From an uncultured Acidobacteriota bacterium (lineage in GTDB: Bacteria > Acidobacteriota > Vicinamibacteria > Marinacidobacterales > Marinacidobacteraceae): 24,405 nt of DNA. Shown one piece after another: positions 2,063 to 24,405 of this stretch. The stretch covers positions 1 through 24,405 of the forward strand of contig CAYGAO010000014.1 in the NCBI GenBank assembly GCA_964347715.1, read 5' to 3'. Within the stretch, counting starts at the first letter, position 1; every line of letters starts with the position of its first letter. Below the pieces are notes generated by a model. The model was given only the letters and a program-made list of their open reading frames with translations. It did not search any database and was not told the DNA's origin. Made by a program: the position numbers and the translations under genes.

Positions 2063-3234
2063 CGGAGGCGCCGGAGCCGTTCGACCGCCTCGACGAGGGT
2101 CTCGCGGGTCTTCGAGAAGGTGAACCGGAGCCGCTGCCGGCCCGCCGCCGGATCGGCGTAGAAGCTCGACCCCGGAACCGCCGCCACGCCGACCGTCTCG
2201 ACGAGCCACCGCGCGAAGGCGACATCGTCGGGAAACCCGAACCCCGAGATGTCCGTCATCACGAAGTAGGCCCCCTGGGGTTCGAAGCAGCGGAATCCGG
2301 CCTCCCGCAGGCCGGCGAGCAGCAGGTCGCGCCGTTCGGCGTAGCCCGCCCGCAGCTCCTCGTGGTAGGAGTCGGGCAGCCGGAGCGCGGCGGCTCCCGC
2401 CTCCTGGAGCGGAGCCGGCGCCCCCACGGTGAGGAAGTCGTGCACCTTCCGGATCCCGTCGGTGAGCTCGGGGTCCGCGATCGTCCACCCGACCCGCCAG
2501 CCGGTCACCGAATAGGACTTCGAGAGGCCGCTGATCGTGACCGTCCGCTCGGCCATCCCCGGCAGCGTGGCGATCGGCAGGTGCCGGGCGCCGTCGTAGG
2601 TGATGAACTCGTAGATCTCGTCGGTGACGACGAGGAGGTCGCGCTCGACGGCGAGCGCGGCGATCCGCTCGAGCTCGGCGCGGGTGAACACCTTGCCGCT
2701 CGGGTTGTTCGGGGTGTTCAGAACGATCGCCCGGGTGCGATCCGTGACCTGGGCCCGGAGCGTGTCCTCGTCGAGCGCCCAGTCGGGTTCGAGGAGCCGC
2801 ACATGGCGCGGTTCCGCCCCCGAGAGCACCGCGTCGGGGCCGTAGTTCTCGTAGAACGGCTCGAAGACGATGACCTCGTCGCCCGGGTCCACGAGCGCGA
2901 GCATCGTGGCGATCATCGCTTCCGTGGCCCCGCAGACCACCGTGAAGTGGAGCTCGGGGTCGAGCTCCATCCCGTAGCGCGAGCGGTAGTGCCAGGCGAG
3001 CGCCTCCCGGAGCGAGCGCGACCCCCAGGTGATCGCGTACTGGTTCTCGTCCCGCCGGATCGCCGCGATCGCGGCTTCCTTGACCGCCGCCGGAGCCGGA
3101 AAGTCCGGAAATCCCTGGGCCAGGTTCACCCCCCCGCGCTCCATCGAGAGCCGGGTCATCTCGCGGATGACGGACTCGGTGAAGCGCGACGCCTTCCGGC
3201 TCTGGCGCCCGCGCCGGGGCGCCGGGGCGCTCAC
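2059..3234 (-). CDS. Class I/II PLP-dependent aminotransferase (aspartate/methionine/kynurenine aminotransferase-like)
   Basis: C-terminal 391 aa of ORF 2059..5700(-) read SRFTESVIREMTRLS..GVNLAQGFPDFPAP..NTPNNPSGKVF..SGLSKSYSVTGWRVGW, the hallmark motifs of fold-type I aminotransferases. Start taken as GTG at 3234 overlapping the slt stop (GTGA); ATG candidates lie inside the conserved N-terminal region, so the exact start is uncertain. Confidence 0.85.
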   Translation of the reverse strand: MSAPAPRRGRQSRKASRFTESVIREMTRLSMERGGVNLAQGFPDFPAPAAVKEAAIAAIRRDENQYAITWGSRSLREALAWHYRSRYGMELDPELHFTVVCGATEAMIATMLALVDPGDEVIVFEPFYENYGPDAVLSGAEPRHVRLLEPDWALDEDTLRAQVTDRTRAIVLNTPNNPSGKVFTRAELERIAALAVERDLLVVTDEIYEFITYDGARHLPIATLPGMAERTVTISGLSKSYSVTGWRVGWTIADPELTDGIRKVHDFLTVGAPAPLQEAGAAALRLPDSYHEELRAGYAERRDLLLAGLREAGFRCFEPQGAYFVMTDISGFGFPDDVAFARWLVETVGVAAVPGSSFYADPAAGRQRLRFTFSKTRETLVEAVERLRRLR

Positions 3235-5471
3235 TCGGGGCCGGTGTCCTGGCCGAGCCCCGGATACAGCCGGCGGTAGAGCGCCTCGTTCCGCATCACG
3301 AGCTTCACATAGTTCCGGGTCTCGGTGAACGGGATCTCCTCGATGAACCGTTCCCGGGGAATCGTCAGGTCCCTCCCGGTCCAGGTCCGGACCCGGTGCG
3401 GCCCGGCGTTGTATCCGGCGAGCGCCAGTTCGGGGCGCTCCCCGAACTCGTCGAGCAGCTGGCGCAGGTAGCGGGTGCCGAAGCGGATGTTCGTCTCCGG
3501 GTCGTAGAGGCGGGCCAGGCGATACGGGACCCCTTCGAGCCGCGCCAGCGCCTGCCCGGTCGCCGGCATGACCTGCATGAGCCCCCGCGCCCCGACCGGG
3601 GACCGGGTCCTCGGGACGAACGCCGATTCCTGGCGGATCAGCGCCGCGACGAGGAAGGGATCGAGATCCCGGCGCTCCGAGAGTTCCTCGATCCGGTCCT
3701 CGTAGCGAAGCGGGAACACGAGCCGCCACCAGGCATCGGGAAGGGCCTCTCCCGCCACCGAGGTGAAGAACGGCGCCGAACGGCGAAGCGCCTGGATCGC
3801 GGGCACCGTCGAGTTCCGGCCGGAGAGCAGATATCCCCGCATCGCGTGGAAGGCGCCGTCGTCGGGGGCGCCCTGCCCCGCCGCCCGTCGGGTCGCCGCG
3901 AGCGCCCGCTCCGCGAACCGCGCGGCGTGGAGCTCCCGGATCCGGGCGGCCTCCTTCGTCCTCCGGATGCGAAAGCGGTCGAGCAGCAGCTCCGGCGCGG
4001 TCAGCGGGTTCTCGATGGTCTCCGGCCCCGCGATCTCGCGGAGGCGCTCCGCCGCCTCGCGGCCGTAGAACGAGTTCCGGTAGCCGAGGAACACTTCCCG
4101 GTAGCGGCGCGCCGCCGCCTCGGGATCGCCGGTCAGCTCGAGCGTCCGCCCGGCGAAGTAGAGGAACTGGCCCGCCATGAAGTCGCCGGGGTGCTCGCGG
4201 GCGACCTGCTCGAACGCGGCGGCGGTCCCTTCGAGCTCGCCGTTCCGGTAGCGGTCCCAGAGCACATGCCAGCGCGCGAAGAGGCCGTGCGGCCCGACTG
4301 GATGCGACTCGGCGATCCGGGCGAGGTAGGGGAGGGCGGCTTCCCGGTCGTTCACCGCGAGCCGGGCGCGGGCGAGGCTGTTGAGCGCCAGGTGGGCGAA
4401 GGGGTGCTCGGTCTCGAGCGCGAGGAGTTCCTCGAGCACCTGGCTCTGGGTGGTCCGCCGCCCGAGCCGCCGGAGCGACTCGCCCCGGTAGTAGAGCGCT
4501 TCCGGCAGGAGGTCCGGCCGCCGCACCCGGGCGAGGGTCCGGAGCGAGGCGCTGAGCCTTCCCCGATGGAACTCCGCGACCCCGATCCGGAGCCGGACGA
4601 GTTCGCCGTCGGCGGCCGACGCGAACCGGCGAGCGACTTCGAGATAGTTCTCGTGCGCGCGCCGGTGGTTCCCGGCGCGGGCGAAGCCGTTCGCCCGGCG
4701 CATCGCCTTCGGATACCGCTCGGCAGGCGTCGGCGCGACGACCTCGGGCCGGCGGTAGAGGCGGCTCAGGGTCTGCCCGGCGGGAAGCGACTGCCGGTGG
4801 GTCGGCATCTCGTAGTAGAGCGTCTCGAATCGCCGCGCGGCCTCTTCGAAGCGCCCCAGGCGCTCGAGCGTCGTGGCCGTCTCGAAGAGCGCGTCGCCCC
4901 GGAGTCCGGAGGCGGCCGCCCCGGCGACGGCGTCGAAGTGGACGAGCGCCGCTTCGTGGTCGCCCGCCGCGCTCCGGCGGCGTCCGAGTTCGAGCCGGAC
5001 CTCGTCGGTGCGCAGGTAGTCCGGGAACTCGTCGAGGACGCGTTCGAGCGCCGGTATCGCCTCGGACCGGGCGCGCGGCAGGCTCCCGCCCAGGAGGTGG
5101 AGCGCGTCGGCGGCGATCGCGCTCTCCCGGAAGTCGGGAGCGGTCAGGCGCCGGACTGCTTCGGTCCAGCGGCCCCGGCGGAGCGCGTTCGCTCCGAGCC
5201 GGAGCGACGCCGCGGCGCGGCTCCGGCCCGAGGCGCTCGGGTCGTCGGCGACCGCTTCGAGGGCGCGGCGTACTTCGTCCCGCGAGCCGCGCCCGGCGGC
5301 GTCCCGGACCCGGGCGAGGTCGGCGGGAAGGGTCTCGAGCGCCGCCCAGGGAAGCGGCGGCTCCGGCTCCTCGGGCGCTCGCGGGAGGGCGGGGGCGAGG
5401 AGCGCGAGGAAGAAGAATCCGACCAGCGCGCCGGGGATCGCCGGGAACCGCCTGGAGAGAAGCCGCCTCAT
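3231..5471 (-). CDS. slt: Soluble lytic murein transglycosylase (Slt70-like: signal peptide, superhelical TPR-like N-domain, C-terminal SLT domain)
   Basis: ORF 3231..5471(-) of 746 aa. N-terminus MRRLLSRRFPAIPGALVGFFFLALLAPALP is a signal peptide. C-terminal QESAFVP..SPVGARGLMQVMPATG..AGYNAGP is the SLT catalytic motif set. Confidence 0.85.
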   Translation of the reverse strand: MRRLLSRRFPAIPGALVGFFFLALLAPALPRAPEEPEPPLPWAALETLPADLARVRDAAGRGSRDEVRRALEAVADDPSASGRSRAAASLRLGANALRRGRWTEAVRRLTAPDFRESAIAADALHLLGGSLPRARSEAIPALERVLDEFPDYLRTDEVRLELGRRRSAAGDHEAALVHFDAVAGAAASGLRGDALFETATTLERLGRFEEAARRFETLYYEMPTHRQSLPAGQTLSRLYRRPEVVAPTPAERYPKAMRRANGFARAGNHRRAHENYLEVARRFASAADGELVRLRIGVAEFHRGRLSASLRTLARVRRPDLLPEALYYRGESLRRLGRRTTQSQVLEELLALETEHPFAHLALNSLARARLAVNDREAALPYLARIAESHPVGPHGLFARWHVLWDRYRNGELEGTAAAFEQVAREHPGDFMAGQFLYFAGRTLELTGDPEAAARRYREVFLGYRNSFYGREAAERLREIAGPETIENPLTAPELLLDRFRIRRTKEAARIRELHAARFAERALAATRRAAGQGAPDDGAFHAMRGYLLSGRNSTVPAIQALRRSAPFFTSVAGEALPDAWWRLVFPLRYEDRIEELSERRDLDPFLVAALIRQESAFVPRTRSPVGARGLMQVMPATGQALARLEGVPYRLARLYDPETNIRFGTRYLRQLLDEFGERPELALAGYNAGPHRVRTWTGRDLTIPRERFIEEIPFTETRNYVKLVMRNEALYRRLYPGLGQDTGPE

Positions 5472-5561: not shown

Positions 5562-5934
5562 GGGGGCGTACTGGGTTCGACGAAGGGACATGAAGCAGCG
5601 ACTGCATGCCGGGGTTCCATCTTCCGTAAACGGTGGAGAACACACAAAAGCCAACAACGAACTGGCACTGGCTGCTTGAAGCCACGTCCTTCCTGGCCAT
5701 GCCTGCCGGGACGGGAAAGGGCGTAGATCAGGCGGGCTCTGCTGGCGGCTCTCCCGCGCCGTCGGTGAGCATCAGGGATAGTTTCCGCGGCGCGATTCGC
5801 CGGGTCGATGCGCTACGGAAGCGAAACGGGGAAAGGCGCCCTCGGGCGCGGGTTCCCGCCACGACGCGGCTAAGCATGTAGAGGTCGTTGTCGAAGACTT
5901 TCGGACGCGGGTTCGATTCCCGCCGCCTCCACCA
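5562..5934 (+). ncRNA. ssrA: tmRNA (SsrA), one-piece, tag reading frame GCC AAC AAC GAA CTG GCA CTG GCT GCT TGA (ANNELALAA*) at 5650..5679
   Basis: 5' GGGGGCGUACUGGGUUCGACG and 3' GGACGCGGGUUCGAUUCCCGCCGCCUCCACCA with encoded CCA. The 7-bp acceptor stem pairs 5562..5568 with 5924..5930 (one G-U). T-arm GGUUCGAUUCC. Internal tag ORF ends in the canonical ALAA-stop. The 3' block GUAGAGGUCGUUGUCGAAGACUUUCGGACGCGGGUUCGAUUCC matches the E. coli tmRNA 3' domain almost base for base. Confidence 0.92.
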
Positions 5935-5941
5935 CTCTCTC

Positions 5942-5973
5942 GCCGCGCCCGTTCGGGCGCGCCGGGTCTTTTC
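5942..5973 (+). terminator. Rho-independent terminator of ssrA
   Basis: GC hairpin CGCGCCC-GTTC-GGGCGCG (5943..5961) followed by the U-tract TCTTTT (5967..5972), 8 nt after the tmRNA CCA end. Confidence 0.5.
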
Positions 5974-5991
5974 GTCCGGTCGAGGCCTGAC

Positions 5992-6196
5992 GAGCGGTGG
6001 AGAAAGCCCTCGTGTGCCGACGCGGCGCGAAGCACCGCCGGGGGGGTCTCCCTCCCCGCGAAAGCGGGCGGAACGGATCGCGTCAGCGATACGGGCCGCC
6101 ACCCGGTGGGGAAAGCGCCCCGCATCCGTCCGGACGACGGGGTTCCTCGTCTCTCCGAGGACGGATTCTCATGCGGGGCGTTCTATCCACCGGCTG
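5992..6196 (+). mobile_element. MITE/REP-like structured element, copy b (full A+B, + orientation), between the ssrA terminator and the OMP stop codon
   Basis: Left end gagcggtggagaaag, right end ctatccaccggctg (imperfect 16-bp terminal inverted repeats). Internal hairpins include a GAAA-tetraloop stem (ccgccccgcGAAAgcgggcgg) and a long imperfect palindrome in the B half. Flanked by ctgac(g) on both sides. Confidence 0.85.
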
Positions 6197-6204
6197 CTGA
6201 CGGG

Positions 6205-7161
6205 TCAGAACCGGTACTTCAGGTGCAGGCCGAAGCCGTAGAGAGTGCGTTCGTTCGTCTCGAGCGTGACGGTGACCGGATTGCTCCCGTCGAGCCGGTT
6301 GCTCGCCGGGGTATGGCTGCGCAGGCGATCGATGGGGCCGGTCGTGTCGCGGAAGCTCTCGGAGGCCGTCCGCCGACCGGCGACGCCGAGCGAGACCGAA
6401 TCGTTGAGTGCGAAATCCACGCCGACGAGCACCTGGTAGCCGAGCAGGCGCGACTCCAGCTCCGTCTGGTTCGTGCTGGTCGTCGAGGCGAGGTTCTGCT
6501 GGACGGTTCGCAGATCGTCGTGGCGGTCCTCCGGAAAGTACCGGGAGATCGAGGTGATGAGCGCCGGGTCGTCGTTTCGCACCCAGGAGAGGCCGTGGTC
6601 CAGGTTCGTGAAGCCGACGCCGACGCCGAGCCCGATCCAGGGGGTGGCGCGGCTCCGGTTTGTGAAGTCGTAGTACAGGTTCCCGAACAGGTTGCGCGAG
6701 GTGGCGCTCCCGATGCGGTCGTCGGCGGCCACGACCTCGCCGTCGAGCTTCGCAACGGCCACCCCGCCGCTGCTCTCGATCCCGGAGGTCTGGTTGTACA
6801 CAGACTCCCGGTAGAAGTACTCGATCTCGACCCGCAGCCGTTCCGAGCCGGGGAACCGGTAGCCGAGCGCTCCGCCGGCCAGGATGCCGCTCGCGCCATC
6901 GAAAGCGTTGGTCCAGGCCGTCTGCGGCGCGTCCGGGTCCCCGCAGAACGCCGGCATCAGGTCGGTGAACGGATTCAGGTGCTCGTCGCAGATGCTGCCG
7001 GGCGTGTTCGCCGCCGAGCCGCTCAGCTCGAGGGCGGACGAGGAGTTCGTCCCGAGTCCCTGGCGCAGATAGAAGCCGCCCCGGGACTGGGCGCGGCCCT
7101 CGCCGGGGGCGAGGGTGGAGAGCAGGGCGCCGAGCCCGACGAGCGCCGCGAGATGTCTCAT
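6205..7161 (-). CDS. Outer-membrane beta-barrel protein (porin/OMP-like), with signal peptide and C-terminal ...KYRF
   Basis: ORF 6205..7161(-) of 318 aa. MRHLAALVGLGALLSTLAPGEGRAQ is a signal peptide. Alternating hydrophobic/aromatic beta-strand pattern (LRVEIEYFY.., GYQVLVGVDFAL.., LYGFGLHLKYRF) with terminal Phe. The SD sequence AGGAGG lies 8 nt upstream of the ATG at 7161. Confidence 0.7.
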   Translation of the reverse strand: MRHLAALVGLGALLSTLAPGEGRAQSRGGFYLRQGLGTNSSSALELSGSAANTPGSICDEHLNPFTDLMPAFCGDPDAPQTAWTNAFDGASGILAGGALGYRFPGSERLRVEIEYFYRESVYNQTSGIESSGGVAVAKLDGEVVAADDRIGSATSRNLFGNLYYDFTNRSRATPWIGLGVGVGFTNLDHGLSWVRNDDPALITSISRYFPEDRHDDLRTVQQNLASTTSTNQTELESRLLGYQVLVGVDFALNDSVSLGVAGRRTASESFRDTTGPIDRLRSHTPASNRLDGSNPVTVTLETNERTLYGFGLHLKYRF

Positions 7162-7173
7162 TCCGGATCCTCC

Positions 7174-7760
7174 TGTTCGCCGCCCGGAGGAGCTCCGGGG
7201 GCGTCCCGGAATGTTGGCACGCCGGCGCGCCCCGCCGGGCTCGGGGGACGATCCTCACGGTTCCGGCGCTCGCCAGCGCATCGACCAGAGGAGTCCCGAG
7301 ACCGCGATCGTGACCGCGGGAACCAGCCTGCCCCGGGGGGCGGCGGATCGTTCCGGTGGCGCCTGCGGGCCTCCGGTGATTTCGGGATCGGTCCCGCGGG
7401 ACGAGGGTTGCTGACGGTGATGACCGATGTCGGCCAGGTGATTCGGCAACCCGGGTGAACCGGAAAGATCGCAATGGACCCGAATGGATCCGAATTGACC
7501 TGAATTAACCCGAATTAGCCCGAATTGACCTGATTTGGCCCGAATTAGCCTGAATTGACCCGAATTGACCTGATTTGGCCCGAATCGGTCCGTCATGGGT
7601 CCGAACGCGGCTCGGATCGGTGGATCCGCGCCCATCGCGCGCCTCGGCCGCGGCCGGACGGGGCGATCAGCCCCCTGGCCCGCAACCCTTCGAAAAGTTC
7701 GGCGGTCAACCGATCCTGCCAGCCCGTCACGGGTGGGTTCGCCGCCGAGGCGGGCGCTGG
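7174..7760 (+). repeat. Long direct repeat R1 (about 85-90% identical to R2 at 9305..9720). It contains the promoter/RBS-proximal region of the OMP gene, a phased 10-bp array, and a 3' fragment of an AlbA_2/HATPase_c_4-like gene
   Basis: Direct alignment: ctgttcgccgcccgg..gctccggg..gttggcacgccggcgcg..ctcgggggacga.cctcacgg.., then ..cgcctgcgggcctccggtgatttc..ggaaagatcgcaat + decamer array + tgggtccgaacgc..ggatccgcgccca..ggacggggcgatc.agccccctggcccgca. R2 lacks ~80 bp present in R1 (about 7285..7365). Confidence 0.8.
7474..7592 (+). repeat. Phased 10-bp tandem array, about 12 units, consensus GACCCGAATT (read in the other phase, TTGACC hexamers every 10 bp)
   Basis: ggacccgaat ggatccgaat tgacctgaat taacccgaat tagcccgaat tgacctgatt tggcccgaat tagcctgaat tgacccgaat tgacctgatt tggcccgaat cggtccg. 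Confidence 0.85.
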
Positions 7761-7826
7761 CGTCAGGTCGCACTGATCCAGCCCGATCGGGGCGTCGATC
7801 AGGCTGGCGCCGATGGGCTCGTCCAC
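7593..7826 (-). pseudogene. 3' fragment of an AlbA_2/HATPase_c_4-family gene (C-terminal ~45 codons), duplicated together with R1
   Basis: ORF 7593..7826(-) ends ..DRLTAELFEGLRARGLIAPSGRGRGARWARIHRSEPRSDP*, closely parallel to the C-terminus of the intact gene at 9590..11074 (..LRRLQKDLEALRARGSIAPSGRGRGATWARIRRADRRSDP..). Similarity is lost upstream of about 7760. Confidence 0.45.
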
Positions 7827-7996
7827 CGGCGCGGGGGAGGCGCCCCCGCGCGGCGCTTCAGTCAGGATACCGGGCGGGAAGCGGGCAGAGTGAACCGGGA
7901 GGGGCCAGCGCGGCGCGGCGGTTCCGGGCGGGAGGCGTCGTCGCTTCCCCGGCCGGCGAGTGGATCCCGACTCGGCGGGTGGCGGGGGAGGGGCTG

Positions 7997-9100
7997 ATGT
8001 TCCACGACCTCCGAATCCAACGGTTCCGCCTCTTCGAGGACCTCCGGATCGACCGGCTGAGCCGCGTCAACCTGATAGCCGGGAAGAACAACACGGGCAA
8101 GACCACGGTTCTGGAAGCGCTGTTCCTGCTTTCGGGCGGGGGAGCGCCCCAACTCCTGGACCGGACCCTCGGCTTCCGAGGCATCGGCCAGGCCCTCGGT
8201 CAGATCGACCGGGTGCCCGAAACGCACTGGGAACCGCTCTTCTTCGGGTTCGAGGCCGGAGAGCCCATCGCGATCCGGGCCGAGACGGCGCGCCACGGCC
8301 CGCTGAACCTGACGCTGAGGATCGAGCGGCGAGATTCGGTGGAGGTCCGCTCGTCGCCTTCGGGCATCGCCGGGGCCACCGTCGTGGAAGGGGAACCGGC
8401 AGGGCTCGACCTGGGCCCGTCCGATCCCCGGTCGCTTCGGCTGGTCTGGCAACAGCGGGAGGAACAGCCAGCCGAGGGACGAATCGAACTGTTCGCCAAG
8501 GGCCTGCGACTTCAAAACCCCCTGGGGGCGCCGTTCCCGGCGTTCTTCGTCTCCAGCCGAACCCACGACCTGGCGACGGATGCGATGCGGCTGGGTCAGT
8601 TGCGGACGAAGAAGATGGGTGGTCGTCTGACCGAGGCGCTGCAGGCGATCGAACCCCGACTCCGGAGCGTCGAGGACAGTGTCGCGGGCGGCAGTCCCAT
8701 GATCTGGGGAGACATCGGGCTGCCCCGCCTGCTGCCCCTGGCGGCGATGGGAGAAGGAATGGCGGCGGTCACCAGCCTGGTCCTGGCGATGGCCGCTGCC
8801 GAGAAGGGGGTCGTGCTGGTGGACGAGATCGAACGCGGGATACACCACTCGGTGATGGAGGACCTGTGGCGGGTCGTGGACCGGAGTTCACGGGAGTTCG
8901 ACACTCAGGTCATCGCCACCACGCACAGCTACGAATGCCTGATGGCGGCGCAGCGGGCCTTCTCGCAGGACGGCGAGTCGGAGGCGGGGGACTTCCGGTT
9001 CCAACGGCTCGAACGGGCGCGGGACGGCGGCATGCGCTCCGTGGGACTCGATCCGGACGATCTGGCGGCGGTCGCTCGCCACGGTCTTGAAGTGCGCTAA
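7997..9100 (+). CDS. ABC-type AAA ATPase (AAA_21/AAA_15-like; the OLD/AbiL/PARIS-AriA/Septu-PtuA type of ATPase), 367 aa
   Basis: ATG at 7997 preceded by GGGGGAGGGG. Motifs seen: Walker A NLIAGKNNTGKTTVLEAL about 25 aa from the N-terminus, ABC-signature-like LPLAAMGEGMAAV, Walker B VVLVDEIERGIHH and H-loop IATTHS. The ORF-track entry 7595..9100 starts too early, inside R1. Confidence 0.8.
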   Translation: MFHDLRIQRFRLFEDLRIDRLSRVNLIAGKNNTGKTTVLEALFLLSGGGAPQLLDRTLGFRGIGQALGQIDRVPETHWEPLFFGFEAGEPIAIRAETARHGPLNLTLRIERRDSVEVRSSPSGIAGATVVEGEPAGLDLGPSDPRSLRLVWQQREEQPAEGRIELFAKGLRLQNPLGAPFPAFFVSSRTHDLATDAMRLGQLRTKKMGGRLTEALQAIEPRLRSVEDSVAGGSPMIWGDIGLPRLLPLAAMGEGMAAVTSLVLAMAAAEKGVVLVDEIERGIHHSVMEDLWRVVDRSSREFDTQVIATTHSYECLMAAQRAFSQDGESEAGDFRFQRLERARDGGMRSVGLDPDDLAAVARHGLEVR

Positions 9101-9105
9101 AGAGG

Positions 9106-9447
9106 ATGGGCAGGGAGCCCCGAGAGATCACCTCGCCGGCGCAGATTCTCGTCGAGGGGCGAGATGGCGAGCTGTTCTTGAACGTACTGATCGAGGCTCT
9201 GGCAGCGGAGGGGCGACTGACCGAGAAGCGCGCGGACCGCTCCGGGATTTCGTGCGGCAGGTCTCGGAGGGGCCAGGGGAACTTCGAGGCCCTTGATCGC
9301 CCTGTTCGCCGCCCGGACGAGCTCCGGGCGGTCCCGGACCGTTGGCACGCCGGCGCGTCCGCCGGGTCGGCTGGGTGCGGCTCGGGGGACGACCCTCACG
9401 GTCCCAGCGCTCGCCAGCTTCCGGCGGCGCCTGCGGGCCTCCGGTGA
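9106..9447 (+). pseudogene. Truncated Toprim-like (DUF4276/RloB/OLD-like) partner of the upstream ATPase. Only ~60 codons are unique before the ORF runs into repeat R2
   Basis: ATG at 9106 lies 5 nt after the ATPase TAA, with the SD sequence AAAGAGG. N-terminal ..AQILVEGRDGELFLNVLIEAL matches the hV(E)G..E..F Toprim-type opening of DUF4276/RloB/OLD proteins. No downstream DxD-type motif. Sequence from about 9300 onward belongs to repeat R2. Confidence 0.4.
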
Positions 9448-9720
9448 TTTCAGGACGGTTCGCGGACGAGGGCTGCTGACGATGACGACCGATGCCGGAC
9501 CGGGGATTCGGCAACCGGGTGAACCGGAAAGATCGCAATTGACCCGAATTGACCCGAATTGAGCTGATATTGGCCCGAATCGACCTGAATCAATCCGAAT
9601 CGGCCGGCAATGGGTCCGAACGCCGGTCGGCGCGCCGGATCCGCGCCCAGGTCGCGCCCCGGCCGCGCCCGGACGGGGCGATCGAGCCCCTGGCCCGCAG
9701 CGCTTCCAGGTCCTTCTGGA
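9305..9720 (+). repeat. Long direct repeat R2, the copy of R1. It contains the 10-bp array (9536..9606, about 7 units) and the genuine 3' end of the AlbA_2-family gene
   Basis: See R1. Array: gcaattgacc cgaattgacc cgaattgagc tgatattggc ccgaatcgac ctgaatcaat ccgaatcggc cgg. Confidence 0.8.
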
Positions 9721-11074
9721 GACGCCGGAGGTCAACCGGTTGCGAAAGCCCGGCCCGGATATCCCGGAGCGCCAGCGGATGCCCTTCGCGATCCAGCAGC
9801 GCCAGAATCGCCTTTTGCCGGTCTTCGCTCGGCTCCTTCTCCGCGATGGGGTCGGCGCTGCGTTTCGCCGCCCCGGGCTCGGGATCCGGTCGCGTCTCCG
9901 TCCCGGCGCGCCGGAACCGGACGGTCACGTTGCCCGCATCGTCCTCGATCTCGGGGCGGGGGAGGCCGGCCCGTTCCGTTTCTTCCGCGATCTTGACCGT
10001 CCCTCGACCCCACTCCTCGATCACGCCCCGCCGGTAGAAGGTCCGGGCGATGAGCGGATTCCACGGCCGCGACGGGTGCGGCCCGAAGAGCTTTTCGGGG
10101 GTCAACCCGAAGTGGAGGGTTCCGGGCGAGGTGACCTCCAGCCGGTCGTCGTAAACGGCGATTCCCGGCGAACCGCCGCCGACGGAGTAATCGCGGTGGC
10201 AGAGCGCGTTCGCCAGAGCCTCGCGAGTGGCCAGCGTCGGGTAGAGCGGCTCGTCGATGCGATCCATGCGACCCGGTTCGAACCGGCTGGCGATCGGCAG
10301 CGTGTCCCGCAGGAAACGCTCGCCGGCGCGGAGCAGCGCGAAGGCGTTTCCGTAGAACTGCCGGTTGTCGAGGAACTCCATGCGGTCGAGGCCCCGGAAC
10401 CGGGCGACCCGAAGCCGGCACTGCGGCAACTCGACCTCGAGCCGTCGTTCGTTGCCGAACACCACCGCCGCCGCCCGCAAGGGGACGCCGTCCCGGCAGA
10501 GACCCAGACCGGTCAACAACTCCCCGGGATCGCGGGTGCCGGGATCCTCGAGTCGGCCGCGTCGAATCGCCTCTTCCACCGTGCGTCGAATCTCGGTCGC
10601 GTCCAGATCCCCGACCGACCAGCCGGCCGCCGGCTGATTCTCCCAACGCTGGTCACCATGTAGGCGCTCCAACAGTACGCGGTGGTACTCGTCGGTCGGC
10701 ATGACGCGCGTCGTGTTGCCGACCCGGCGGTAGGCAGAGCCACGATACTCGTACGGCTTCGCCGTTCCCGGAGTCACGGAAACGACCACGATCTTCAGCC
10801 CTTCGGCGACGGGCACCCGCTCGACGGCCGGGGACGCCGGCGGGTCGATCCGCGCGAGCTCCTCGCTCAGCTGCTCGATGGTCCGTTCGCTCACCTGCTG
10901 CCCCACGGGCTTGCCCTCCGGCGTCACCCCGAGGAGCACCCGGCCGCCCTGCTGATTCAACATGGCGCAGACCGTCTTGGCGGCCTCGCGGCGCATCCCC
11001 GTCATTTTCTTCAGCTCCAGCGTTTCCGATTCGCCGGCTGCGACCAGCGCCGCGATCCCGGCTGCGGTGATCAT
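9590..11074 (-). CDS. AlbA_2 (divergent AAA, Schlafen-like) + HATPase_c_4 + C-terminal wHTH protein, the kind often annotated as 'putative transcriptional regulator / RecG-like'
   Basis: Start chosen at MITAAGIAALVAAGESETLELKK (ATG about 11074, overlapping the upstream stop as ATGA). Motifs: LELKKMTG..AKTVCAMLNQQGGRVLLGV (AlbA_2), LREALANALCHRDYSVGGGSPGIAVYDDRLEVTSPGTL (HATPase_c_4). The ORF-track N-terminal 67 aa are upstream extension. Confidence 0.8.
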   Translation of the reverse strand: MITAAGIAALVAAGESETLELKKMTGMRREAAKTVCAMLNQQGGRVLLGVTPEGKPVGQQVSERTIEQLSEELARIDPPASPAVERVPVAEGLKIVVVSVTPGTAKPYEYRGSAYRRVGNTTRVMPTDEYHRVLLERLHGDQRWENQPAAGWSVGDLDATEIRRTVEEAIRRGRLEDPGTRDPGELLTGLGLCRDGVPLRAAAVVFGNERRLEVELPQCRLRVARFRGLDRMEFLDNRQFYGNAFALLRAGERFLRDTLPIASRFEPGRMDRIDEPLYPTLATREALANALCHRDYSVGGGSPGIAVYDDRLEVTSPGTLHFGLTPEKLFGPHPSRPWNPLIARTFYRRGVIEEWGRGTVKIAEETERAGLPRPEIEDDAGNVTVRFRRAGTETRPDPEPGAAKRSADPIAEKEPSEDRQKAILALLDREGHPLALRDIRAGLSQPVDLRRLQKDLEALRARGSIAPSGRGRGATWARIRRADRRSDPLPADSD

Positions 11075-12842
11075 GCCCGCCCAGTACCCCGGTCGCCGTC
11101 CGGCTCGGGGAAGGGTTCGGGAAGCCCCCTGACGATCTTCACGGTCTCGACGCTCACATGGACGATCCGCCGGAACGCGGTCACCAGGTCTTCGGGCTTC
11201 TCGAACCACCCGTTCGGGTCGTTCAGTATCCCGCTCCGCTTGTCGCGCGTCACCCGGTAGCGGTCCATGAACCACTCGACCGGCGACCTGCCGTTCACCA
11301 CGTACTCGTGCGCCTCCGGCGGAATCCCGGCCAGACGAACGAACTCGTTCAGTATCAGCACGCTCCGGTCCTCCTTGTCGGCGAACCGCATCCTGCGGGT
11401 GCCGATACGGAAGTGCCTGGACTCCAGCCCCAGGAGCTTCGACGGTACGACCCGGAGCGGGTATTCGGCGCAGGTCTCATAGCCCAGATGGAGTTTCCCC
11501 AACGCTCGTCCGGCCTCCACGAAGGCGTCGAAGTCGGGAGCCATCGGAATCCGGGGAAGGCCCTTGGCCAGGTCGTTCGCGAAACGCTTGCCGTAGGCAG
11601 GCGCGTGGAGAACCCCGTACACATAGTCGAAGATGTCGTCCTTCGTGATCGTGTCGCGCCCGTAGTGATCCCGAAAGAGGTGCAGCGCCCAGTCCGTGAT
11701 GTTGTCCACCGGACCCATATCCGCCCTGAAGAGTTCGTCGTCGTCAAAGACACCCCCGTGGGTACTTGGGGTAGGTCCATCTGGGGAAGCACTGCCCGAA
11801 CTCGAGGAAGTGGAAGTCGGGCATTCGGTCGGCGAGGAGGACCGAGAATGGTTTCGTCGCGCCCCTCCCAGGCACGCAGATGACGCGATTCTCCGCTCGT
11901 ACTGGTAACGCGGGAAACACTGGCCCTTCGACACCAGCTCGAAGTCGGGCATCGTGTCGGCCATGAGCGCCGCTCCTCCCCGAGAGCGGCTTCGATCTTC
12001 GCCGGGTCGGTGGTCACCGGGAGCTCCAGCTCCTGGAGCGAGGCGTCCTCGTCGTTCCGCCCGGCGCGGGTGTCCGAGCAGATCCCGATGTATCGGTGCT
12101 CCACTGTCTGCTGTTCGGCGAAGGCGCGCATGGACTGCTGCAGCAGCGAGATCGAGGGGACCAGGTAGAGGACCCGCCCGCCGATCCCGACCATCTCCTC
12201 GGCGATCCGCATCGCGGTGAAGGTCTTGCCCGTGCCGCAGGCCATGACCAGCTTCCCGCGGTCGGCGCTCCCGAACCCGGCCCGCACCGCCTCGATCGCC
12301 TGTTGCTGGTGCTTCCGCGCGGTGAACGGCTCGGTCCGCCAGCGGAGCGCCTCCGGCGCCTCCTCGAGCAGGTTCGGCCAGTCCACGGGCCGTTTCGCCA
12401 GGTCGGCGAACTGGAGCACCTGGACCTCGGGCCGCTGCCCCCGGATCATGGCGAGCGCGTTCGGCCCCCATCCGCGCCCGGTGTCCACGACCATGCGGGC
12501 GGTGAAGTGCTTCTTCCCGGAGGCGGCGAGGAACGAGTCGAGGTCGCCCTTCGAGATCCGGGTGTTCGGCCGGTAGCACTTGCACTGGATGGCGCAGAAG
12601 CCGCCGTCGCGCTCTTCGGCGACGAGATCCACCCCGGTGTCCCGGGCCGAGCGCCCGAACCTGACGGCCCAGTCGGCCCACCGCGAGACCGAGGCGAACC
12701 GGTCCCGGTAGAGCGGATCCTCCAGGAGGTATCTCCGGATCAGCCGCTCGAAGAGCGCCCCCTGCTCGGCCGGCGAGCCGGACCGCTCGAAGATCTGGTC
12801 CAGGACTGTCCGCAGGTCGTGCATCGGCCGCCGCTCCCCCAT
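11071..12842 (-). pseudogene. Decayed type ISP restriction-modification enzyme. An N-terminal Mrr-like PD-(D/E)xK nuclease and the first helicase motifs run in one frame (12842..~11985). A frameshift then joins a C-terminal type-ISP-like domain in another frame (~11750..11071). Most of the helicase, the whole MTase and most of the TRD are missing
   Basis: ORF 11355..12842(-) reads GVDLVAEERDGGFCAIQCKCY (nuclease), then MACGTGKTFTAMRIAEE (helicase motif I) and YLVPSISLLQQ, and turns to nonsense after ..AALGEERR. ORF 11071..13224(-) carries real-looking sequence only from ..LMADTMPDFELVSKGQCFPRY.. and MGPVDNITDWALHLFRDHYG...HEYVVNGRSPVEWFMDRYRVTRDKRSGILNDPNGWF (the type ISP C-terminal domain pattern) up to the stop. 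Total length ~1.8 kb against ~4.7 kb for an intact enzyme. A ~70-bp internal duplication sits at 11772..11845 and 11896..11975. Confidence 0.65.
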
Positions 12843-13012
12843 CCCGATCCGGGCGGAGCGGATTATCCCCGGCGGGCCGGCGCGCCGGGGGCTTGAATCG
12901 CCGGGGCGTCCCCGAATATGCTCCGCGCGCTTCCGGGCGCCGTCGCGCAGGGTCGGCGGCGGCCCCGGTGTCTCGGAGGGTGCCGCCCGGCGGGGTGGAA
13001 GGAAGGTTGCTG

Positions 13013-14341
13013 ATGCTCAGGCGAATCCGGTGGATCGCGCCGACGGTGCTCCTGTCCGCGCTCCTGTGGGCCGAGCCGGCTCTCGCCCAGGACGGGGACG
13101 CGATGAGCACGGTCGGGCTCGACACGGTCTTCGTCCTCCTGTCGGCGTTCCTCGTGTTCCTGATGCAGGCAGGGTTCGGGATGCTCGAGGCCGGGTTCAT
13201 CCGCGCGAAGAACACCTCGAACATCCTGACGAAGAACTTCCTCGACTACTGCTTCGCCTCGCTCGGATTCTTCATCTTCGGCTACGCGATCATGTTCTCC
13301 GAGGGGAACGGGCTCTTCGGGACGAGCGGCTTCCTGATGCTCGGAGCCGAATCTCCGGCGGATGTGCCGCTGTGGGCGTTCTGGCTGTTCCAGGCGGCGT
13401 TCTGCGGCGCGGCGGCGACGATCGTCGCCGGCGGGATGGCCGAGCGGATGAAGTTCACCGCCTACCTGGCCTACTCCTTCATCATCTCGGCGTTCGTGTA
13501 TCCGGTCGTCGGACACTGGACCTGGGGCGGCGGCTGGCTCGCCGGACTCGACTTCTTCGACTTCGCCGGCTCGACGGTCGTGCACCTGACGGGCGGGGCC
13601 ACCGCGCTCGTGGGCGCGTGGATCCTCGGCCCCCGGCTCGGGAGGTTCAACGCCGACGGCACGGTGAACTTCATCGCCGGGCACTCGGTGCCGCTCGCCA
13701 CGCTCGGGACCTTCATCCTCTGGTTCGGGTGGTTCGGCTTCAACGCCGGATCGAATCTGGCGGTCGGAGACGGCGAGGCGATTTCGCTGATCGCGATCAA
13801 CACGAACCTCGCCGCCGCCGCCGGGGCGCTCGTGACCACCTTCATCTCCTGGATCATCTGGGGGAAGCCGGACCTGTTCTTCACCATGAACGGCGCCCTC
13901 GCCGGGCTCGTCTCCGTCACCGCTCCGTGCGCGGTGGTGAGTCCGTTCGCGGCGATCTGGATCGGCGTCGTCGGAGGGTTCGTGGTCGTCTTCGCCACCA
14001 CCGCGCTCACGAAGATCCGGATAGACGACCCCTGCGGCGCCTTCCCGGTGCACGGGGCCTGCGGGTTCTGGGGCACGCTCGCGGTCGGCCTCTGGGGTCG
14101 CGAGCCGCTCGGCCTCGCCCGGGAAGGCCTCTTCTACGGCGGCGGTTTCGAGCAACTCGGGATCCAGGCGCTCGGCAGCCTCGCCACCGCCGCCTTCATC
14201 ATGGTGGCGATGGGGCTCGTCTTCCTCACGATCAAGGCGCTCTTCGGCCTCCGGGTCTCCCGCGCCGAGGAGATCCGCGGCCTCGACGAGAACGAACACG
14301 GCATGGAGTCCTACACCGGGTTCCAGATCCTGAGCTCCTGA
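13013..14341 (+). CDS. amt: Ammonium transporter (Amt family) with signal peptide
   Basis: ORF 12893..14341(+). The likely start is the ATG at 13013 (MLRRIRWIAPTVLLSALLWAEPALAQ), with GGAAGG upstream. Amt hallmarks seen: DTVFVLLSAFLVFLMQAGFGMLEAGFIR, ..FDFAGSTVVHLTGG.., ..WFGWFGFNAGS.., ..DDPCGAFPVHGACGFWG. Confidence 0.85.
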   Translation: MLRRIRWIAPTVLLSALLWAEPALAQDGDAMSTVGLDTVFVLLSAFLVFLMQAGFGMLEAGFIRAKNTSNILTKNFLDYCFASLGFFIFGYAIMFSEGNGLFGTSGFLMLGAESPADVPLWAFWLFQAAFCGAAATIVAGGMAERMKFTAYLAYSFIISAFVYPVVGHWTWGGGWLAGLDFFDFAGSTVVHLTGGATALVGAWILGPRLGRFNADGTVNFIAGHSVPLATLGTFILWFGWFGFNAGSNLAVGDGEAISLIAINTNLAAAAGALVTTFISWIIWGKPDLFFTMNGALAGLVSVTAPCAVVSPFAAIWIGVVGGFVVVFATTALTKIRIDDPCGAFPVHGACGFWGTLAVGLWGREPLGLAREGLFYGGGFEQLGIQALGSLATAAFIMVAMGLVFLTIKALFGLRVSRAEEIRGLDENEHGMESYTGFQILSS

Positions 14342-14723: not shown

Positions 14724-16139
14724 GTGTCGCTGCGCCAGGTCCGCCGGCTGATCGCCGACAAGGACATCCGCCATGTGGACTTCCGTTTCGCCGACCTCCT
14801 CGGCGGCTGGCGGCACATCACCTATGCGGTCGAGGCCTTCGAGGAGGACATGTTCGTCGGGGGCGTCGGCTTCGACGGCTCCTCGGTCCGGGGCTTCCAG
14901 GGGATCGAGGACTCGGACATGCTGCTCCGCCCCGATCCGGAGAGCGTCTTCGTGGATCCGTTCTACAAGGATCCGACGCTCGTATTCATCTGCAATGTCA
15001 AGGATCCGGTGACGCTGCGCCTCTATTCGCGCGACCCGCGTTACATCGCCGAGAAGGCGACCCGGTTCCTGAACAGCTCCGCGCTCGCGGACACCTGCTA
15101 CATCGGGCCCGAGGCCGAGTTCTACATCTTCGACGATGTCCGGTTCGACCAGACGGTGAACGAGGCGTTCTACCGGGTGGATTCGGCCTGGGGCGGATGG
15201 AACACCGGACGCGAGGAAGGGCCGAATCTCGGCCACAAGCCGGGGCTGAAGCAGGGCTACTTCCGGATGCCGCCGACCGACCCCTACCAGGATGTGCGCT
15301 CGCAGATGGTCACGAACCTCCGGAGCTGCGGCGTGGACGCCGAACTCCACCACCAGGAGGTCGGTAGTGGCGGACAGGCCGAGATCGGCATCCGCTACAA
15401 GCCGCTCATCGAGATGTCCGACGCGGTGATGAAGTTCAAGTACACGATCAAGAACACCGCCCATCAGCACGGGAAGACGGCGACCTTCATGCCGAAGCCG
15501 CTGCTCGGCGACAACGGCTCCGGCATGCACTGCCATGTGAGCCTCTGGCGCGACGGCAAGAACCTGTTCCACGACCAGGACGGCTATGCCGGGCTCAGCG
15601 ACACCGGGCGCTTCTTCATCGGCGGCGTCCTGAAGCACGCCGGTTCGCTCCTCGCGTTCACCTGTCCCACGGCGAACTCCTACCGGCGCCTCGTCCCGGG
15701 TTTCGAGGCGCCGGTGAAGCTCGTCTATTCGCAGCGGAACCGCTCGGCGGCGGTGCGGATCCCGATGTATTCGGCAGCCGCGGCGGCGAAGCGGATCGAG
15801 TTCCGCTGCCCCGATCCGAGCGCGAACCCCTACCTCGCGTTCTCGGCGCTGCTGATGGCCGGGGTGGACGGCATCCTGGAGCGGACCGAGCCGCCCGCTC
15901 CCGTGGACAAGGACATCTACGAGCTGCCGGAGGCCGAACAGCGAAAGATCGGCGACACCCCGCCGACGCTCAAGGCGGCGCTTCGTTCGCTCGAAGACGA
16001 CAACGAGTACCTGTTGCGTGGCGGCGTGTTCACGCCGGATGTCGTGGACACCTGGATTCGCTACAAGCGCGCGAACGAGCTGGCCTACATGGACCAGCGC
16101 CCGCACCCGGCGGAGTTCGCGCTCTACTACGACTGCTAG
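14724..16139 (+). CDS. glnA: Glutamine synthetase type I
   Basis: GTG at 14724. Collinear with E. coli GlnA: ..VDFRFADLLGG.., FDGSS, ..GPEAEFYIFDD.., ..KPLLGDNGSGMHCHVSL.., ..NSYRRLVPGFEAPV.., ..RNRSAAVRIP.., C-terminal PHPAEFALYYDC. Confidence 0.92.
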   Translation: MSLRQVRRLIADKDIRHVDFRFADLLGGWRHITYAVEAFEEDMFVGGVGFDGSSVRGFQGIEDSDMLLRPDPESVFVDPFYKDPTLVFICNVKDPVTLRLYSRDPRYIAEKATRFLNSSALADTCYIGPEAEFYIFDDVRFDQTVNEAFYRVDSAWGGWNTGREEGPNLGHKPGLKQGYFRMPPTDPYQDVRSQMVTNLRSCGVDAELHHQEVGSGGQAEIGIRYKPLIEMSDAVMKFKYTIKNTAHQHGKTATFMPKPLLGDNGSGMHCHVSLWRDGKNLFHDQDGYAGLSDTGRFFIGGVLKHAGSLLAFTCPTANSYRRLVPGFEAPVKLVYSQRNRSAAVRIPMYSAAAAAKRIEFRCPDPSANPYLAFSALLMAGVDGILERTEPPAPVDKDIYELPEAEQRKIGDTPPTLKAALRSLEDDNEYLLRGGVFTPDVVDTWIRYKRANELAYMDQRPHPAEFALYYDC

Positions 16140-16348
16140 CAGCCCGTGGACAAGACGCCCCGCAAGGGAATCCGTCCTCGAAGAGGTGGGGAACCCCTTC
16201 GTCCGGGCGGATGCGGGGCGCTTTCCCCACCGGATGGCGGCCCGAATCGCTGGCGCGATCCGTTCCGCTCTCTTTCGCGGGGAGGGAGGACCCTCCCCGG
16301 CGGCGCTTCGCGCCGCGTCGGCGCACCAGGGACTTTCTCCACAGCCTG
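16140..16348 (-). mobile_element. MITE/REP-like structured element, copy c (full, inverted orientation), starting 1 nt after the glnA TAG stop
   Basis: cagcccgtggacaag...ctttctccacagcctg, the reverse complement of copies b and e. It explains the artefactual N-terminal extension of ORF 16211..17737 and ORF 14232..16367(-). Confidence 0.85.
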
Positions 16349-16441
16349 CTGGCGCCGCATGAGCCAAGCGTCCCCGATCGAACCGACTCCCGGAGGCCGG
16401 ACGCAGGAAACCCCGACCCCCGCCAACGGAGGCCCGCTTAC

Positions 16442-18568: not shown

Positions 18569-18850
18569 CGTTTCAGGCGCCGGCCGGTCGGATTCCGGAA
18601 CGCTGGCCGGCGGCGCGCGGCGCCGAACGAGCCGGTCGTGAGGCGTTCATGGATTCGGTGTCAGGCGACGGGGAATTCGACGGCCTCCCGTGAGCCCGGT
18701 CGGGTTCGGCCATTACGGTTTCGTCCGGCGACACCCCCATCTCGGGCGCCTCGCAACGAGCGCCTCCGCCTGCCGATCGCCGCCGCCGCCGTCTTTCCGG
18801 CCGCGGCGCGGATCCAGCGCGAAAGGCGGAACCTCGGGGCATCGGCGCGG

Positions 18851-19110
18851 AAGCGCTTCGATCCATCGTCCTCGCTCCGGCTCGTCGTGCTCGCTGGCAA
18901 CGGCGGGCGGCTCGGGGGGGCGGAAGCGCTCCGATCCATCGTCCTCGCTCCGTCTCGTCGTGCTCGCCGGCAACGGTGGGCGGCTCGGGGGGGCGGAAGC
19001 GCTCCGATCCATCGTCCTCGCTCCGTCTCGTCGTGCTCGCCGGCAACGGTGGGCGGCTCGGGGGGCGAAATCGAGCACGCCGATCCATCGTCCTCGATCC
19101 GGCTGCCGCG
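18851..19110 (+). repeat. 73-bp tandem repeat, about 3.3 copies (unit aagcgcttcgatccatcgtcctcgctccggctcgtcgtgctcgctggcaacggcgggcggctcgggggggcgg)
   Basis: Unit starts at 18851, 18924 and 18997 (period 73, >90% identity). A fourth unit is diverged. Because the period is not a multiple of 3, ORF-track frames shift between units. Confidence 0.85.
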
Positions 19111-19727: not shown

Positions 19728-19840
19728 CGGGGTCCGACGAATCGCTTCCGCGATTCGCCCCACCGTCTTTCGCGGGGAGGGGGACCCTCCCCGGCGGCGC
19801 TGCGCGCCGCGCCTGTACCCGAGGGACTTTCACTGCAGCC
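19728..19840 (-). mobile_element. MITE/REP-like element, copy d (A half only, inverted), ending directly at the plsC TGA stop
   Basis: cgaatcgcttccgcgattcgcccc...ctttcgcggggagggggaccctccccggcggcgct...gagggactttcactgcagcctg matches the reverse complement of the A half of copy e. The next 3 nt, TCA at 19843..19845, are the plsC stop. Confidence 0.75.
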
Positions 19841-19842
19841 TG

Positions 19843-22528: not shown

Positions 22529-22671
22529 CCAGAGGGACTTTCCCGCGACGACGGCCCGGATCTCCTGGATGCGGTCGAGAGCGGCGTCCCGTTCCGTGCG
22601 GGGCGGGGCCGGGGTGTCCGCCGGGCGCGAACGCGCGCGCGACGAGATCGGCGGCACGGCTCGGGTCTCAG

Positions 22672-22874
22672 CAGCCTGTGGAGAAAGTCCCTCGCGGGCC
22701 GAGGCGGCGCGGAGCGCCGCCGGGGAGGGGTGCGGCGAGGGACCTCCCGCCCCGCGAAAGCGGGCGGAACAGATCGCGCGAGCGATTCGGGCCGCCAGCC
22801 GGTGGGTCCGGACGACGGGGTTGCCCATCTCTTCGAGGACGGATTCCCATGCGGGGCATTTTCTCCACCGGCTG
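22672..22874 (+). mobile_element. MITE/REP-like structured element, copy e (full, + orientation), flanked by a 4-bp direct repeat TCAG. The right TCAG contains the stop codon of the DUF3467 gene
   Basis: cagcctgtggagaaagtccctcgcg...ggattcccatgcggggcattttctccaccggctg. The terminal inverted repeats are cagcctgtggagaaa and tttctccaccggctg. TCAG at 22668..22671 and 22875..22878. Confidence 0.88.
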
Positions 22875-24330: not shown

Positions 24331-24344
24331 GGCGGAAATCCTAG

Positions 24345-24405
24345 CAGGTCGTGGAGAAAGTCCCTCGCGCGCCGACGCGGCGCGAAGCGCCGCCGGGGAG
24401 GGGCC
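24345..24405 (+). mobile_element. MITE/REP-like element, copy f (start of the A half, truncated by the window end)
   Basis: caggtcgtggagaaagtccctcgcgcgccgacgcggcgcgaagcgccgccggggagggg aligns with the A half of copies b and e. Preceded by ...cctag. Confidence 0.75.

Follow-up and report, generated by a model that had tools for sequence, protein, structure and literature searches.

A decayed PDC-M38-like ATPase and DUF3226 cassette between diverged direct repeats in an uncultured Acidobacteriota bacterium

We examined a 24,405-nt stretch of DNA from an uncultured Acidobacteriota bacterium (contig CAYGAO010000014.1 of assembly GCA_964347715.1, positions 1-24,405, forward strand; hereafter, the window). 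Within it, a variable restriction/defence islet of ~7 kb, bordered by a transfer-messenger RNA (tmRNA) gene on the left and by amtB, holds a two-gene module at 7826-9296. The module is flanked by two same-orientation repeats, R1 (7166 to ~7735) and R2 (9295 to ~9760), which are 450-570 bp long. Judged by sequence, the module is a degraded member of the PADLOC candidate system PDC-M38, with an ATPase that is also AbiLi-like. The ATPase gene is intact, while the adjoining gene for a DUF3226 partner, predicted to be a Toprim/OLD-like nuclease, has lost its middle. We are highly confident in the identity of the module (ATPase plus DUF3226) and in the internal deletion; the statement as a whole, i.e., an old and partly decayed two-gene defence-type module with an internal deletion in the partner gene and a single-crossover history, we regard as probable. 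The cassette represents an ordinary defence remnant in decay rather than a new system. A first-pass annotation of the same DNA was confirmed in the main points of its observation, and its interpretation was partly supported.

The ATPase and its gutted partner

The ATPase (367 aa, 7997-9100) has Walker A (GKNNTGKT), Walker B (VLVDEIE), and H-loop (TTHS) motifs. The two Pfam profiles that the first-pass annotation had singled out for this gene both match above their gathering cut-offs: AAA_21 at 2.5e-17 (64.3 bits; cut-off 27) and AAA_15 at 4e-16 (60 bits; cut-off 32.1). In PADLOC, the protein matches AbiLi (PDLC02336, 2.5e-48), with residues 1-366 aligned to profile positions 1-339 of 340, as well as PDC-M38A (PDLC04611, 9.6e-49) and four further PDC-M38A models; the AriA, GajA, and PtuA models match more weakly. 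The motifs, together with the AbiLi and PDC-M38A matches, bear out the earlier assignment to ABC (ATP-binding cassette) ATPases of the AbiL/PARIS kind. A housekeeping ABC protein had been raised as the competing assignment; this does not apply, since transporter-type ABC models of NCBIfam reach only E 0.007-0.1, far under their cut-offs, and the best NCBIfam matches are the N-terminal P-loop regions of RecF, PtuA, and MAD3.

At least 120 homologues align to the ATPase with 96-100% query coverage, the closest being 65% identical among the matches listed. We compared the window with two further assemblies from other samples (ERZ25070786 and ERZ21849000), referred to as L004 (99.7% identical to the window) and L005 (99.9%). 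All of the single-nucleotide polymorphisms (SNPs) between the window and L004 within the ATPase gene (4/4) are synonymous, and its open reading frame (ORF) has no frameshift, whereas R1 and R2 gained six insertions or deletions (indels) in ~450 bp. The full-length homologue alignment, the synonymous SNPs, and the absence of frameshifts beside indel-bearing repeats suggest purifying selection. Thus, the ATPase, now an orphan, appears to have remained under such selection since its partner was lost, although the numbers are thin.

Upstream of the gene, the leader at 7826-7963 is 75% identical to positions 3588-3724 of the closest relative, L001 (E 5e-21), which marks the left edge of the cassette at ~7826. 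This leader identity (75% over ~140 nt) is above what the 65% protein identity would lead one to expect. The leader has no excess of RNA structure (z = -0.37) and no sigma-70 consensus; a sigma-70 scan found no promoter in 7100-9800, and Rfam at permissive thresholds found no known RNA in 5900-9800.

The partner family was identified from relatives. In all three that we compared (L001, L002, and L003), the ATPase gene is followed within 0-4 nt by a gene for a DUF3226 protein of 212-232 aa. Overall, the DUF3226 partners of intact relatives are 200-232 aa long; the 120 listed DUF3226 proteins span 188-321 aa, with 119 of them within 185-240 aa. The full-length partners match PDC-M38B (1.2e-9) and Pfam DUF3226 (2.2e-26), and none matches the AbiLii models of PADLOC at E up to 1. 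Because the full-length partners match PDC-M38B only, the partner belongs to a sequence family other than AbiLii. Conserved in the family are an invariant glutamate in LVEG, an RDAE motif, and a GMLE motif. Searching PDB sequences with the DUF3226 profile gave chance matches only, and a fold search was needed instead. An AlphaFold2 model of the closest partner (pLDDT, the predicted local distance difference test, 93.6; pTM, the predicted template modelling score, 0.90) predicts that the family has a Toprim/OLD-nuclease-like fold with conserved acidic residues.

The same pair of ATPase and DUF3226 genes is also found at 1545-3292 of a ColE1-type Klebsiella plasmid of 4119 bp (NZ_CP030721.1), where the ATPase is 25% identical and the pair is the sole cargo besides rop and a helix-turn-helix gene. 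By tblastn, the ATPase was matched in 133 Klebsiella plasmid records, those listed being mostly ~4 kb. As the sole cargo of small plasmids, the pair may be a self-contained addiction or defence module.

In the window, what remains of the partner gene is in two pieces. The 113-aa ORF at 9106-9447 has no match in Pfam, NCBIfam, or PADLOC, even at E 1 to 10, and a spliced, "repaired" partner peptide likewise matches nothing in PADLOC or Pfam. A profile from 119 DUF3226 proteins, run over all six reading frames of the window, finds only residues 4-35 of this ORF (profile positions 3-34, E 4.5e-5). Immediately downstream and in a different frame, 9216-9296 encodes TDREARGPLRDFVRQVSEGPGELRGP followed by a stop codon. 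This peptide is identical at 10/18 positions to the C-terminus of the L001 partner (residues 194-211; tblastn), and it fits the DUF3226 C-terminal motif LDHxAL..[VL]RxF[LV]..[LV]. The family-wide profile does not detect this C-terminal remnant (E 48), which was established by pairwise protein and DNA comparison with L001 and shuffling controls. At the DNA level, window 9133-9196 aligns to L001 4879-4942, the 5' end of the partner gene, with a score of 39, and window 9227-9263 aligns to L001 5436-5473 with a score of 41; shuffled controls for both alignments score 19.5 +/- 2.6, with a maximum of 31.

The two ends of the partner gene are thus ~30 bp apart in the window vs ~490 bp in L001, and the 3' remnant closes with a TGA at 9294-9296, at the edge of R2. 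Since both gene ends survive in close spacing, we attribute the damage to an internal deletion of ~460-490 bp with a frameshift. The first-pass annotation had the partner cut by R2 after ~60 codons; instead, similarity ends at about codon 35, and the gene's own 3' end follows in another frame. About 35 N-terminal codons (first strand and helix) and 26 C-terminal codons (last helix) are left, and ~150 codons are deleted. The remnant lacks RDAE and GMLE: R77, D78, E80, G127-M128, E130, and the four-strand core are missing. The predicted Toprim core is therefore incomplete in the window copy, so the earlier proposal of a Toprim-type partner holds for the DUF3226 family, through the modelled fold, and fails for the window copy, whose core is deleted. 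With only ~35 and 26 partner codons remaining, the pair cannot work as a nuclease system, in agreement with the earlier suggestion that the module is inactive as a two-gene system.

PDC-M38 is the closest match among known and candidate systems. PDC systems are candidates that were found through their embedding in other defence systems (bioRxiv 10.1101/2024.01.29.577857). The window ATPase matches the models of gene A, the gene order and tight spacing are the same, the partners of the relatives match PDC-M38B and DUF3226, and L001 is itself embedded between DUF499 and DUF1156 genes. The difference is that gene B in the window is a ~61-codon remnant with an internal deletion and a frameshift, so the candidate system is incomplete here. 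AbiL combines an ABC/Rad50-like ATPase with a TOPRIM/OLD-like second protein and is akin to PARIS, in which the AriA ATPase restrains the toxic Toprim effector AriB (PMC13064643). The window ATPase aligns over its full length to AbiLi of the Lactococcus system (AbiLi plus AbiLii), and the fold of DUF3226 is also OLD/Toprim-like; however, neither the remnant nor the partners of the relatives match AbiLii. AriB of PARIS is a DUF4435-type protein of ~300 aa. It has no sequence-level match to the partner, and the trigger and target of PARIS are not to be assumed here. OLD nucleases and GajA of Gabija are fused ATPase-Toprim proteins, unlike the separate genes here, and identity to OLD is 13-19%. 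Altogether, the module resembles PARIS, OLD, and Gabija in architecture and fold without belonging to their families.

The flanking repeats and the AlbA_2 gene

The first-pass annotation described R1 and R2 as same-orientation copies that bracket the cassette (at 7174-7760 and 9305-9720), and our comparison upholds this with slightly different edges. Two blastn blocks connect the copies: 7351-7691 with 9419-9706 (E 2.6e-60) and 7166-7277 with 9295-9418 (E 2.8e-28). In a MAFFT alignment, homology begins at 7166/9295 and fades at ~7735/9760. A copy is made up of the final ~45 codons of an AlbA_2/HATPase_c_4 gene, a 10-bp tandem array, and 220-290 bp of non-coding DNA. With gaps left aside, R1 and R2 are 87% identical in the non-coding part, 85% in the array, and 76% in the gene tail. 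The six indels include sizes of 13, 73, 49 (five array units), and 11 bp. The longest perfect matches between the copies are just 26 and 25 bp, and recombination should by now seldom remove the module.

The fragment in R1 corresponds to AlbA_2 residues 451-493 (68% identity, E 2e-9; tblastn, 7712-7581), which is in line with the earlier description of an AlbA_2 3' end in each copy and a mere fragment at R1. No further fragments of the AlbA_2 gene or of the neighboring outer-membrane beta-barrel protein (OMP) gene were found in the window. On its left side, R1 comes to within 4 nt of the OMP start codon, and the AGGAGG ribosome-binding site of the OMP gene is inside R1; the counterpart in R2 is degenerate, with no OMP gene adjoining. 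R1 is thus complete at the OMP side and cut within the gene, and R2 is complete at the gene side and ends where an OMP gene would begin.

The two gene tails are closest to each other among 119 homologues (score 131 vs at most 102), and they have in common a derived C-terminal extension (IRRADRRSDP/IHRSEPRSDP) that is absent from all 28 homologue tails displayed. This indicates that a single ancestral tail, belonging to this lineage or one near it, gave rise to both. Both tails (9590-9640 and 7593-7625, minus strand) overrun the usual end of the family (ARWxRL and stop) by 9-15 codons. The overrun resembles degenerate array units (RRADRRSDPLPADSD and HRSEPRSDP, each followed by a stop), and the final codons of the homologue at L020 are also within its array.

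Two other readings of R were discarded: the non-coding part was checked as a decayed 5' end of hsdR and this was ruled out, and a faint likeness of the left end of R to the tmRNA 3' end (GTTCG..CCGCC) was judged to be chance.

The features of the islet are as follows (TRF, Tandem Repeats Finder; MITE, miniature inverted-repeat transposable element).

5562..5934, plus strand: tmRNA gene, tag ANNELALAA, left border of the islet (ARAGORN; Rfam RF00023, 152.9 bits)
6007..6202: copy of a MITE-like dispersed repeat of a ~210-bp family with terminal inverted repeats, separate from R1/R2 (repeat search, alignment)
6205..7161, minus strand: OMP gene, 318 aa (Pfam OMP_b-brl E 1.2e-4, under the curated cut-off)
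7166..7450: non-coding part of R1, 87% identical to 9295-9514, including a 73-bp stretch absent from R2
7451..7592: 10-bp tandem array of R1 (TRF core 7473-7585, 11.3 copies, unit AATTGACCCG)
7593..7735, minus strand: pseudogene fragment of R1, the final ~44-47 codons of the AlbA_2/HATPase_c_4 gene including its own stop (tblastn)
7736..7825: ~90 bp between R1 and the cassette, similar neither to R2 nor to L001
7826..7996, plus strand: upstream leader of the ATPase gene, with 7826-7963 kept in the closest relative, L001
7997..9100, plus strand: intact ABC-type ATPase of the AbiLi/PDC-M38A kind, 367 aa (Pfam, PADLOC)
9106..9210, plus strand: 5' remnant of the DUF3226 partner gene, ~35 codons including the LVEG strand (family profile, DNA alignment)
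9216..9296, plus strand: 3' remnant of the DUF3226 partner gene in another frame, TDREARGPLRDFVRQVSEGPGELRGP and stop (tblastn, motif, DNA alignment)
9295..9514: non-coding part of R2, copy of 7166-7450 in R1, with a degenerate ribosome-binding site and no OMP gene beside it
9515..9592: 10-bp tandem array of R2 (TRF core 9537-9590, 5.3 copies)
9590..11074, minus strand: intact AlbA_2 + HATPase_c_4 gene, 494 aa, whose final ~55 codons (9590 to ~9760) are the right part of R2
11071..12842, minus strand: remnant of a Type ISP restriction-modification enzyme (Pfam Mrr_cat_2 3.9e-37, ResIII 2.6e-13, Type_ISP_C 3.2e-60)
12893-14341: amtB

The Type ISP remnant keeps the N-terminal Mrr_cat_2 and ResIII domains and the C-terminal specificity domain, and its middle is gone. 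It is the second defence gene with an internal deletion in the islet, and its stop codon overlaps the start of the AlbA_2 gene (ATGA).

The AlbA_2 gene matches SLFN_AlbA_2 (2.6e-20) and HATPase_c_4 (1.9e-22) in Pfam. Its homologues at 64-74% identity, the few source-named ones being from Gemmatimonadota, Chloroflexota, and Poribacteria, are usually found in type I restriction operons between hsdS and hsdR. The 10-bp array noted earlier in each repeat copy was recovered by TRF, with 11.3 and 5.3 copies, and elsewhere in the window TRF found no period-10 array of at least 3 copies. The first-pass annotation had placed this array among upstream elements of the OMP gene. Comparison of seven independent loci with 67-74% protein identity to the window gene (the window, L010, L011, L013, the L014 group, L020, and L021) leads to a different assignment: in 7/7, a tandem array of 10-11-bp units (3-5.5 units) has its start no more than a few bases from the AlbA_2 stop codon. 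The array therefore belongs natively to the 3' side of the AlbA_2 gene. Where that gene is part of a type I restriction operon, the array is just upstream of hsdR. The arrays lie at the following coordinates.

Window: 7473-7585 and 9537-9590
L010: 9447-9510
L011: 4097-4135
L013: 4430-4485
L014: 4430-4465
L020: 4422-4466
L021: 4803-4840

The units vary by locus (GGCCTATTGCC, GGCCTATTCT, GGCGCATTAC/GGCTGATTCC, GGGGCGTCTT, GGGGGCCTAA, and GGCCCATTCC, with GGGTCAATTC in the window). The unit sequence shifts in step with the protein. That the array is a functional cis-element of the AlbA_2/HATPase_c_4 subfamily is conceivable but doubtful. One possibility is a phased operator array that is bound cooperatively by the C-terminal winged-helix domain of the protein itself and that controls the downstream hsdR in type I operons; the array could equally act on DNA or RNA bound by the AlbA_2 protein. 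Homologues of the AlbA_2 protein on plasmids, which are under 36% identity, could not help with the array question. One 54-aa "member" of the AlbA_2 cluster, P0125, was set aside as an unrelated AT-rich sequence.

At L013 (3001-4928), another tmRNA (tag ANNSQFAYAA) has its 3' end ~150 nt from an AlbA_2 gene of 70% identity, which is oriented, with its array, toward that end. This arrangement mirrors the position of the AlbA_2 gene and array beside ssrA in the window, and the two tmRNA genes agree exactly over their last 38 nt.

The G+C content of the window is 65-78%. Two other repeats were observed in it. The MITE-like repeat of ~210 bp, with termini CAGCAGCCTGTGGA and TCCACAGGCTGCTG, is present six times in 24 kb, in full or in part, in either orientation and at 80-94% identity (1-106, 6007-6202, 16138-16350, 19738-19847, 22653-22880, and 24326-24405). 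A 73-bp tandem repeat (3.5 copies, 92% identity) lies at 18847-19101 in a G+C-rich region.

History of the locus and competing explanations

The module derives from a pair made up of an ABC ATPase of the AbiLi/PDC-M38A kind and a DUF3226 Toprim/OLD-like nuclease. If PARIS and AbiL are a guide, the ATPase would serve as sensor or restrainer, with the Toprim protein as a toxic effector. In the history that we propose, a circle with the module and one R copy would have recombined by a single crossover into a chromosomal AlbA_2-array-spacer-OMP region. In R1, this would leave the tail of a gene cut short, and in R2 a spacer that lacks an OMP gene; the copies are now 76-87% identical. The partner gene has been gutted, with its middle lost and its frame changed, and the ATPase has been kept as an orphan. 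The first-pass annotation had suggested such a crossover by a circle carrying one R copy, and the repeat geometry, taken alone, is compatible with it. The single-crossover history is the most economical that we can infer, and the geometry matches it exactly; we hold it tentatively, as a little short of an even case.

This history has partial parallels. As in Campbell-type integration, direct repeats flank the insert, each complete on one side and cut on the other. As in tmRNA-linked islets, the locus is directly downstream of ssrA, and the AlbA_2 gene of L013 is also beside a tmRNA 3' end. In contrast to both, there is no integrase and no tmRNA 3'-end repeat, and the repeats are local, 450-570 bp long, and 13-24% diverged rather than a short att core. 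The tmRNA 3' end (5900-5934) is not repeated anywhere in the window. Around the modules of L001-L003, no long direct repeats were found.

Several points weigh against the proposed history and roles. We found no empty site, no single-R relative, and no intact partner at this locus: look-ups of the exact OMP and AlbA_2 proteins returned only the two near-identical assemblies, and in metagenome contigs the OMP search gave one 43%-identical gene in an unrelated context. All three assemblies derive from one population. The cassette and its surroundings have no integrase, plasmid, or phage gene that would account for a circular intermediate, and 5935-12890 has no integrase-like ORF. The gene tail has diverged more (76%) than the non-coding part (87%), which is unexpected under in-place duplication and neutral decay. 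The argument for selection on the ATPase depends on four SNPs. The sensor and effector roles are borrowed from PARIS, no defence test of any PDC-M38 member was found in the papers searched, and HEC-01, a related system of ATPase and TOPRIM, gave no defence in the reported assays (bioRxiv 10.1101/2024.01.29.577857).

The main rival, which we think unlikely, needs no circle. Here, two complete tandem AlbA_2-array-spacer units flanked the module, and a later deletion left ~45 codons of the left AlbA_2 gene as the R1 tail. Internal deletion is the visible mode of decay in this islet, having struck the DUF3226 gene as well as the Type ISP enzyme, and the ~90 bp at 7736-7825 could be a leftover of the deleted DNA. 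The AlbA_2-array unit is found in many unrelated contexts, which suggests that it is often moved or acquired, and separately acquired units would make it easier to explain why the tail is less similar (76%) than the spacer (87%). However, this history requires two independent acquisitions and a deletion; no other AlbA_2 fragment remains to the left of the module, and each tail has the other as its nearest relative, the two sharing a derived extension that the 28 displayed homologue tails lack. It is quite improbable that R1 and R2 belong to an independent family of dispersed repeats or mobile elements whose placement around the cassette is incidental. The window has a real family of this sort in the ~210-bp MITE-like repeat, so the genome tolerates such elements; yet R occurs just twice in the 24.4-kb window plus an extra 3.8 kb of L004, and it is built of local pieces, namely a gene tail, the array of that gene, and the OMP leader with its ribosome-binding site. 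A 19-nt core of R that is exact in both copies gave only two chance matches (Pseudobdellovibrio and a cyanobacterium) in 185,579 species genomes, a collection that seemingly lacks the source genome, and the R-core and array patterns and the AlbA_2 profile gave no match in viral contigs.

Two further explanations concern the cassette itself and the assembly. The first-pass annotation offered a new minimal variant, in which the ATPase and a short Toprim-derived peptide (the 113-aa ORF at 9106-9447) would form a working, reduced defence system. The ATPase is intact and conserved, the remnant retains the LVEG strand with the conserved glutamate, and the structure is stable in three assemblies. We nonetheless find this very improbable, as the partners of relatives are 200-232 aa (212-232 aa for the three ATPase-linked ones examined, and 185-240 aa for 119/120 listed DUF3226 proteins) and the remnant has neither RDAE nor GMLE nor the four-strand core. 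Past codon ~35, moreover, the ORF is out-of-frame gene debris and then R2 sequence, it has no profile match at permissive thresholds, and the other assemblies have no gene called there. An assembly artefact (a mis-join, for example, or a region that was collapsed or duplicated) deserves a thought, since the contig is metagenomic and repeats and 10-bp arrays are hard to assemble. The R1-cassette-R2 structure is the same in the window, L004, and L005, and agreement among three assemblies from different samples means that it is not an artefact; with 13-24% divergence and six indels between R1 and R2, reads would not have been confused between the copies. We consider the chance of an artefact negligible.

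Implications for the defence pair and the AlbA_2 array

The phased array that is conserved behind AlbA_2/HATPase_c_4 genes in restriction operons, of which we found no description in the searches made, is more interesting than the cassette. If the array is a cis-element, R1 and R2 would each hold a copy of a regulatory array, and the cassette would have been inserted beside an array.

The cassette itself adds one degraded copy of a widespread candidate defence pair of an ATPase and a Toprim-like protein. The order of decay, with the effector gutted and the ATPase kept and seemingly selected, is what a PARIS-type toxin and restrainer would predict, and it makes the surviving gene a natural "orphan sensor." If the pair works like PARIS, loss of the effector first would be the tolerated order of decay. 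The locus also shows that embedded cassettes can become fixed between long, diverged repeats without a recombinase gene.

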